From a virus (Duplodnaviria > Heunggongvirae > Uroviricota > Caudoviricetes), in IMG/VR virus record IMGVR_UViG_2872164251_000007, positions 1-29,317 of that record: 29,317 nt of DNA. One strand, given 5' to 3'. Numbering within the stretch: position 1 is the first letter of the stretch; every line of letters begins with the position of its first letter. The translations under genes were made by a program, and so were the position numbers. Shown piece by piece: positions 12,320 through 12,928 of this stretch. The notes beneath the pieces are model-generated. The model saw only the letters and a list, made by a program, of their open reading frames with translations. It did no database searches and had not been told where the DNA came from.

Positions 12320-12928
12320 TCAAGCACTGGGCCACATTGACACACCACTGACGCCAAAAGCTAACATCAGACTTCTGCGCTCGGCTGCTGGAAGGTAACC
12401 TTCAGAAGGCCTGTAACCATTATCAGAAATCTCATGGTCAATATGCTTTGCCATTTCAATGTATTTTGCAAGGCGCTCAACAGTTAATCCCCGAAATTGT
12501 TCAGAGTTTACCGCCAGGACACTTTTTGCAATATCGTCTTGGTTATCCAAATGATCCGCCGAGAAATTAAAGCTCGAAGTATACGAATCGCCGTGAGCAA
12601 TAGCGTCTCTTACCTCAAGACACTCTTTGATAATTTGGTAAGGTTTTGTCCCCATATAATTGTTTATACCGCACAATTTTAACGTATTCTTGTGCATTGT
12701 CTTTCTGCACTCTTTCTGCGTCTTATCGTAGCCGGGGTCAACCTGTTTTCTATAGAAGATGAACATTGCCTCAATAGCAAAAGCAGTAAATATTATACCT
12801 GTGCGGCAATGATGCTCACGTTGCCAATCTTCCGAAGCCATTCCAGCCAGCCCCAAACAAGTTTCAGCAGTATTCATACATTCATATGAAGGCTTATTTT
12901 CTTTGCTAACTAAAAATTCTTTGACCAT
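12320..12928 (-). CDS. Hypothetical protein, 202 aa, with HEPN-like Rx4H motif
   Basis: AT-rich ORF between the integrase and the promoter cluster; contains EVRDAIAHGDSY (R-x4-H); family assignment is inference only. Confidence 0.5.
   Translation of the reverse strand: MVKEFLVSKENKPSYECMNTAETCLGLAGMASEDWQREHHCRTGIIFTAFAIEAMFIFYRKQVDPGYDKTQKECRKTMHKNTLKLCGINNYMGTKPYQIIKECLEVRDAIAHGDSYTSSFNFSADHLDNQDDIAKSVLAVNSEQFRGLTVERLAKYIEMAKHIDHEISDNGYRPSEGYLPAAERRSLMLAFGVSGVSMWPSA

Follow-up and report, generated by a model that had tools for sequence, protein, structure and literature searches.

The question raised by this locus is what is encoded by the short gene lying between an integrase gene and a set of phage-type promoters in the 29,317-nt stretch of DNA analyzed here (hereafter, the window), and what purpose the gene serves there. 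The preliminary description had proposed an ORF of 202 aa at positions 12320–12928, which was confirmed; its strand, which had not been given, is the minus strand. The ORF begins with an ATG codon, a GAGGA ribosome-binding site is located upstream, and 31 nt separate the stop codon of the integrase from its start. The AT-richness that had been noted also holds, as the GC content of the gene is 41.9% (GC3 40%) against 50.3% for the window, and a GC content as low as this is found in 1.8% of 609-nt segments. For comparison, the integrase gene has a GC content of 49.7% and a GC3 of 55%. The location given for the gene, between the integrase (12960–14570) and T7-group promoters (+1 at 12298, 12270 and 11709), is correct as well. 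The dN/dS value relative to copies of 88% and 81% identity is 0.10, and the ORF is a real gene that purifying selection maintains.

The protein had been linked to HEPN RNases through the motif EVRDAIAHGDSY. The motif is present; however, the bare motif does not stand above chance, with Rx4H occurring in 30% of shuffles of the 202-aa protein and Rx4-6H in 65%. It rises above chance because R107 and H112 are conserved across the family. Among 36 diverse members, with identities down to 16%, no column is invariant other than those of R107 and H112. In 115 full-length members, conservation is 100% at F50, E53, R107 and H112, and 97% at A111 and G113. Residue 108, which follows the conserved arginine and is expected to be polar in HEPN domains, is D in 78/115 and N in 35/115 members. 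The motif thus takes the family form R-[DN]-x2-A-H-G at the usual position of the HEPN active site; in the window, it is R107-D-A-I-A-H112 (12593..12610, minus strand), located at the C-terminal end of helix 3 and predicted from sequence and conservation to be the catalytic Rx4H.

In the published definition, the HEPN domain is an up-down bundle of four helices, the second and third of which are separated by an insert; Rx4-6H lies at the end of helix 3, the arginine is followed by a polar N, D or H, and a conserved acidic residue is often found in helix 2 near the motif, typically as Ex3[KR] (PMC3710099). The position of the motif, the polar residue and the insert between helices 2 and 3 of the 202-aa protein match this definition, and an acidic residue is conserved in helix 2. 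The conserved acidic residue is E53 (codon at 12770..12772, minus strand), which lies within the helix of residues 34–63 (helix 2) as part of the motif F50-x2-E53. The residue at +4 from E53 is I or N, not K/R, and the Ex3[KR] version of the helix-2 motif is absent from the family.

The AlphaFold (AF2) model obtained from the family alignment has a pLDDT of 80 and a pTM of 0.75. It contains helices at residues 13–30, 34–63, 95–111 and 150–170 and an insert helix at 75–85, with R107-H112 at the C-terminal end of the helix of residues 95–111, and it is weak over residues 112–150, immediately past the motif. In the Foldseek search against the PDB, HepT/HEPN toxins were ranked on top with a probability of up to 0.98 and weak E-values (0.04), and HEPN proteins dominated the top ranks in two independent fold searches. 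Four-helix bundles are a common fold. A Foldseek search against viral structures (BFVD) gave no meaningful match.

The sequence profiles did not reach the same point. No curated HEPN model passes its threshold for the 202-aa protein or for the members of its family, and PDB sequence searches using two family profiles returned nothing relevant. The only Pfam families that were matched repeatedly are HEPN_RiboL-PSP (PF18735), HEPN_MAE_28990 (PF18737) and HEPN_Cthe2314 (PF18730), each with every score below the gathering threshold (15 bits against 28.4). Among the 36 members, such sub-threshold matches number 10/36 for RiboL-PSP, 3/36 for MAE_28990 and 2/36 for Cthe_2314, and each of the other Pfam families matches at most 2 of the 36, nearly all of them just one. 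The best matches have E-values of 0.004–0.02 for PF18735 and 2e-4 for PF18737, all under the cut-off. The RiboL-PSP match of the window protein spans residues 68–135 and includes the Rx4H region. The HEPN-type call of the preliminary description is therefore upheld by structure prediction and fold searches and not by sequence profiles, in which the three Pfam HEPN families all stay sub-threshold. Taken together, the 202-aa protein very probably belongs to the HEPN superfamily (Pfam clan CL0291), with no known family to which it can be assigned.

The family is small and is rarely found. A search of 5.8 billion proteins gave 28 clusters, all from Enterobacterales and none with a Pfam domain, which are called 'hypothetical' or 'uncharacterised' in the sources giving names, and only 40 members were recovered when 1.84 billion representatives were searched exhaustively with a profile. 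A second search of the 5.8 billion proteins with a diverse profile gave 93 clusters, with sources that include Vibrio, a metagenome-assembled Dehalococcoidia genome and marine samples. Almost all of these clusters consist of solo proteins, about 190–205 aa long, that lack a Pfam domain, and this search revealed no bridge to any Pfam-annotated family. Among 5,426 complete E. coli genomes, only 20 carry the gene. The viral contigs of IMG/VR contain no member of the family, and the identity of the ORF as a phage gene was therefore rejected. No PADLOC v2 model matches the family, and neither its peptides nor its accession was found in the searched text, truncated for some files, of the supplement of DefensePredictor, in which the system 'DS-44' is described only as downstream of an integrase.

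Apart from the islands described below, family members occur in the transfer and cargo regions of ICEs, and their neighbors in such non-island settings are TIR, HEPN_LA2681, CdiI_2, Imm32, ParE/Phd and Nmad genes. In an ICE of Brenneria tiliae (locus L006, 2350–9574), a member is located 26 nt past a CdiI_2 immunity-like gene, with TIR, pP_pnuc and HEPN_LA2681 genes around it, and an Imm32 gene adjoins another member in L015. Some distant members lie amid housekeeping genes, as in L018. No conserved partner or antitoxin gene was found beside family members in more than 15 contexts.

In the window, the gene is part of an island integrated at a tRNA gene. From right to left, the island consists of tRNA-Gly, the integrase, the 202-aa gene, about 1 kb without ORFs, an Ant/Rha gene, and genes of 163 aa and 329 aa. 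The tyrosine integrase (536 aa; 12960..14570, minus strand) matches PF00589 (1.6e-18) and phrog_1 (2.7e-45). The integration site is the tRNA-Gly(UCC) gene glyU (14705..14779, minus strand; ARAGORN), whose spacing from the integrase is equal to that in the E. coli loci L002 and L104, and the glyU island adjoins the region of ETT2 (type III secretion system 2) of E. coli. No repeat of the 3' end of tRNA-Gly of at least 13 nt, as expected for an att site, was found in the window. The remainder of the island past the promoters (7486..11389, minus strand) has the same gene order as in the intact islands L002 and L103. It includes the Ant/Rha regulator gene (start at 11389, remainder at 9348–10049, minus strand; PF09669, phrog_10324), which is split by an IS629-like element of the IS3 family (about 10050–11359; orfA 10104–10430, orfB 10427–11317, end TGAACCGC). 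The 163-aa gene (8559–9050) and the 329-aa gene (7486–8475), both on the minus strand, are conserved in L103 and have no Pfam, PHROG or PADLOC match. IS insertions are also present elsewhere in the same island in L001 and L008.

In E. coli EC21Z-137 (L103, about 3330–10068), the same five-gene unit interrupts a ynfE/ynfF reductase gene as a clean 6.7-kb insertion, with the 11-bp repeat AGTTCCAGATG on either side. The presence of the intact island within ynfE/F indicates that it is mobile and not tied to glyU. The order of integrase and then slot gene is common to L003, L007, L010, L012, L103, L104 and metagenome loci, and the proteins encoded past the promoters are mostly unrelated between islands. 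Additional defense genes are found there in related islands, encoding an AbiP2-type reverse transcriptase (E 4e-192) in L003 (8288–9841) and a PDC-M26A-like AAA protein in L010 (10840–13359).

On the other side of glyU, the window continues directly with tRNA-Thr, tRNA-Arg and tRNA-Met genes (14783–15015), which are followed from 15224 on by an ORF6N-domain gene, IS3-family fragments and lambdoid prophage genes (DUF1367, DUF1133, DUF1364). None of the complete E. coli genomes spans the junction beside glyU, from the tRNA cluster to the prophage genes, and this absence suggests that an IS-mediated rearrangement of the kind found in Shigella has taken place.

Phage-type promoters follow the 202-aa gene on the same strand. 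P1 (TAATACACCTCACTATAGAGGAA; 12293..12315, minus strand) is a T7/T3-like promoter look-alike with 19/23 positions of the T7 consensus; it begins 5 nt past the stop codon of the HEPN gene, has its +1 at 12298, and is kept in L001, L008 and L100. P2 (CTTAACTATCACTATAGGGGAGA; 12265..12287, minus strand, +1 at 12270) and P3 (GACTAAACTATCACTATAGGGA; 11704..11726, minus strand, +1 at 11709) are both of the K1F (Kayfunavirus) type, and P3 agrees with a K1F-like phage promoter at all positions of a 22-nt stretch. In the 39–40 kb K1F-like (Kayfunavirus) phages, several copies of the 16-nt core of P2 and P3 are present per genome, on one strand.

T7-, T3- or K1F-type promoters were found at this place in every integrase-plus-slot island examined. 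In islands whose integrase is followed by the HEPN gene, with HEPN proteins only about 50% identical, same-strand T7-group promoters are located 5–260 nt past the gene. A T3-like promoter occupies this place in a Kluyvera island, and the promoter CGACTCACTAAAGGGAGA is present in the islands of Pantoea and of the metagenome locus L003. In the glyU island of E. coli 2022CK-00450 (L104), a perfect 23/23 T7 consensus promoter (TAATACGACTCACTATAGGGAGA; 5688–5710) and a 22/23 copy (about 5797–5819) directly follow a copy of the HEPN gene of 72% identity. There are no such promoters by the family members in ICEs. The promoters are located downstream of the slot gene and are unable to drive it, and they therefore belong to the island backbone, not to a HEPN cassette. 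Their similarity to the promoters of T7-group phages suggests that the island is tuned to these phages, which fits the known triggers of RAZR described below. A literature search gave no relevant publication on islands with T7-type promoters.

The island promoters are directed toward a non-coding segment, conserved and about 0.5 kb long, which lies between P2 and P3 in the window (11727..12270, minus strand), and an Ant/Rha or phrog_129 regulator gene is located beyond it. The colinear blocks GATTGGAAACCA, GGCGGG..CAGTAGAC and GGCGGAAACTCA are common to the window and the divergent islands L003 and L010; islands having these blocks are otherwise about 50% diverged. The segment contains no conserved ORF or peptide (tblastx) and no Rfam family. 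In a shallow alignment, its alifold energy is −82, compared to −31 ± 5 in column shuffles, and the number of compensatory pairs is 25, compared to 15 ± 4. These values are suggestive of a structured segment, which is a candidate for an RNA made by a phage polymerase. Other contents were considered for the 1-kb region past the slot gene. Decayed phage genes were rejected on the grounds that the region has no phage DNA homology except for the IS end, and small protein genes were rejected on the grounds that no peptide is conserved.

The place between the integrase and the promoters is a defined slot with varied occupants. Many other E. coli strains have, after the orthologous integrase, a gene for a 219-aa DUF4145 protein that overlaps the integrase stop, and this slot protein (in L002) is PD-T7-4 (PADLOC E 1.3e-102). 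PD-T7-4 is identical to RAZR, a validated abortive-infection RNase with a zinc finger and a HEPN domain. This enzyme cleaves single-stranded RNA and has the T3 and T7 portal proteins as its triggers, and its gene protects MG1655 when it is the only one supplied on a plasmid (PMC13017515). That PD-T7-4 often overlaps an integrase gene was reported by Vassallo et al. (10.1101/2022.05.12.491691). A motif scan using the conserved non-coding blocks recovered 17 metagenome islands, in which the slot holds the 202-aa family (7), a RAZR-like protein (5), a 257-aa protein (3) or a 97-aa protein (1), or is empty (1). The 257-aa protein (L087 547–1320, L088 2204–2977 and L096 436–1209, on the motif-forward strand, where the L087 coordinates refer to the reverse complement of the stored locus) matches only DUF4238, and weakly so (E 0.007), with no hit in PADLOC, and it is another defense-gene candidate. 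The varied occupants indicate that the 202-aa gene is exchangeable cargo in a defined slot. Its earlier description as accessory cargo beside the integrase is thus borne out, since the same slot in sister islands holds a validated HEPN abortive-infection RNase.

The 202-aa gene and RAZR are positionally equivalent, both located in the identical slot, right after the orthologous integrase and right before the same phage-type promoters, and both encode a single-gene HEPN protein, of about 210 aa in RAZR. However, RAZR consists of an N-terminal Cys4 zinc ribbon and a C-terminal DUF4145 HEPN domain, whereas the 202-aa protein has no zinc ribbon, and the motif spacing is R146-x7-H154 in RAZR as opposed to Rx4H. 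The 202-aa protein has no PD-T7-4 match in PADLOC and no DUF4145 match in Pfam. In sequence, the two are not detectably related, as hhalign gave a probability of 0.4% for the family against a 5-sequence RAZR-like alignment and no relation to the DUF4145 protein.

The closest functional precedent is HepS, the 'HEPN Solo' abortive-infection protein of the Gifsy-1 prophage, which has 218 aa, the motif residues R100-H105 and no partner, and is non-toxic by default (PMC13043305, PDB 9oik). No sequence homology to HepS (STM14_3211 / PDB 9oik) was found. The best structural matches are the HepT toxins of HEPN-MNT systems (SO_3166, PDB 5yep, 7ae2, 7bxo), from which the 202-aa protein differs in being about 70 aa longer, in a sequence identity of 9–16%, and in the conserved N-terminal (NKPSYEC) and C-terminal (AFGVSGxSxW) extensions of its family. 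In addition, no adjacent gene for a minimal nucleotidyltransferase (MNT) antitoxin is present in any of more than 15 contexts of the family.

The best explanation of these results, which we consider probable though by a limited measure, is that the gene encodes a stand-alone HEPN RNase of an undescribed family, which the island carries between its integrase and its promoters as accessory cargo against phages. The present analysis itself gives the HEPN fold, the invariance of the motif, the absence of a conserved partner and the occupation of RAZR's slot. The gap between the integrase and the slot gene is 31 nt in the window, 13 nt in L103 and absent in L104, and no sigma-70-like site was found in the gap of the window; because the gap is this short and no promoter is seen in it, the protein is probably produced from the integrase transcript. 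If co-transcribed with the integrase, it would already be there when a phage shuts off host transcription. Two subunits may pair as in other HEPN enzymes, and R107, D108 and H112 at the end of helix 3 would then form a composite, metal-independent RNase site with E53 of helix 2. As in the precedents of HepS and RAZR, the enzyme is expected to be inactive until it is triggered by a phage product, after which it would cut tRNA, mRNA or rRNA, of the phage as well as of the cell, so that translation stops and the infection is aborted. From the slot and the promoters, T7-like phages would be the likeliest target.

An RNase may also serve the life cycle of the island itself, by processing or regulating the transcripts of the phage-type promoters or, if the island is a satellite of T7-like phages, by degrading the RNAs of the helper phage, to whose cost the island would then spread. 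Such a role would account for the T7-group promoters and the conserved non-coding segment past the gene in every island with the integrase and the HEPN gene, and for the presence of two unrelated HEPN families in the slot. It is nevertheless unlikely, as the slot is sometimes empty or filled with non-HEPN proteins, the family is also found in ICEs and other places without such promoters, and RAZR, which fills the slot elsewhere, gives defense in MG1655 from a plasmid that supplies it by itself (PMC13017515). Quite unlikely, too, is a toxin of a toxin-antitoxin or addiction module that stabilizes the island, whose antitoxin would have gone unrecognized as a small ORF, an RNA or the neighboring integrase. 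No MNT or other gene is conserved alongside in more than 15 contexts, the non-coding segment past the gene depends on the phage promoters and is missing outside the islands, and a solo HEPN protein such as HepS can be non-toxic by default (PMC13043305). These points have to be set against the fact that many HEPN proteins are toxins of toxin-antitoxin systems, that the best structural matches are HepT toxins, and that the distant members in L006 and L015 have immunity-type genes as neighbors (CdiI_2 and Imm32, respectively).

The sub-threshold sequence-profile matches and the recurrence of four-helix bundles by convergence raise the question of whether the protein is a helical look-alike of HEPN and not a nuclease, for example, a regulator or an adaptor; some HEPN domains are themselves non-catalytic (PMC3710099). 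In such a case, the complete conservation of R107, H112 and E53 at the HEPN catalytic positions, in a sequence that otherwise drifts to 16% identity, would be hard to account for, and HEPN proteins head two fold searches. We therefore regard a look-alike as very improbable and retain the stand-alone HEPN RNase with an anti-phage role as the preferred reading.

With regard to novelty, what is new is the family, as solo HEPN defense-type RNases are already a known kind. HepS (PMC13043305) and RAZR (PMC13017515) have only recently been shown to combine the sensing of phage structural proteins with the killing of the infected cell. The present result adds a defense-gene candidate that is called 'hypothetical' in every genome seen with annotation, and the slot between the integrase and the phage promoters provides a simple marker for more such genes, for example, that of the 257-aa protein.

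The architecture of the island is a more surprising result than the HEPN gene. The layout consists of the integrase, the variable slot, 1–4 promoters, the non-coding segment of about 0.5 kb, an Ant/Rha-type regulator and unknown genes. It is possible, and we put this forward only tentatively, that the HEPN gene is the constitutive arm of small integrative islands wired to the RNA polymerase that T7-group phages produce on infection. If this is true, the polymerase of the infecting phage switches the island on, which would make it a satellite of T7-like phages or a polymerase-triggered defense island, and the slot gene, made with the integrase, would already be present despite the shut-off of host transcription by T7. 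If the promoters work as they are read here, the islands would be chromosomal elements that use a phage RNA polymerase as their induction signal, of which no published description was found. As a third family next to those of HepS and RAZR, unrelated to them and located in RAZR's slot, the 202-aa family would constitute a natural swap experiment on how HEPN scaffolds solve the same sensing problem.
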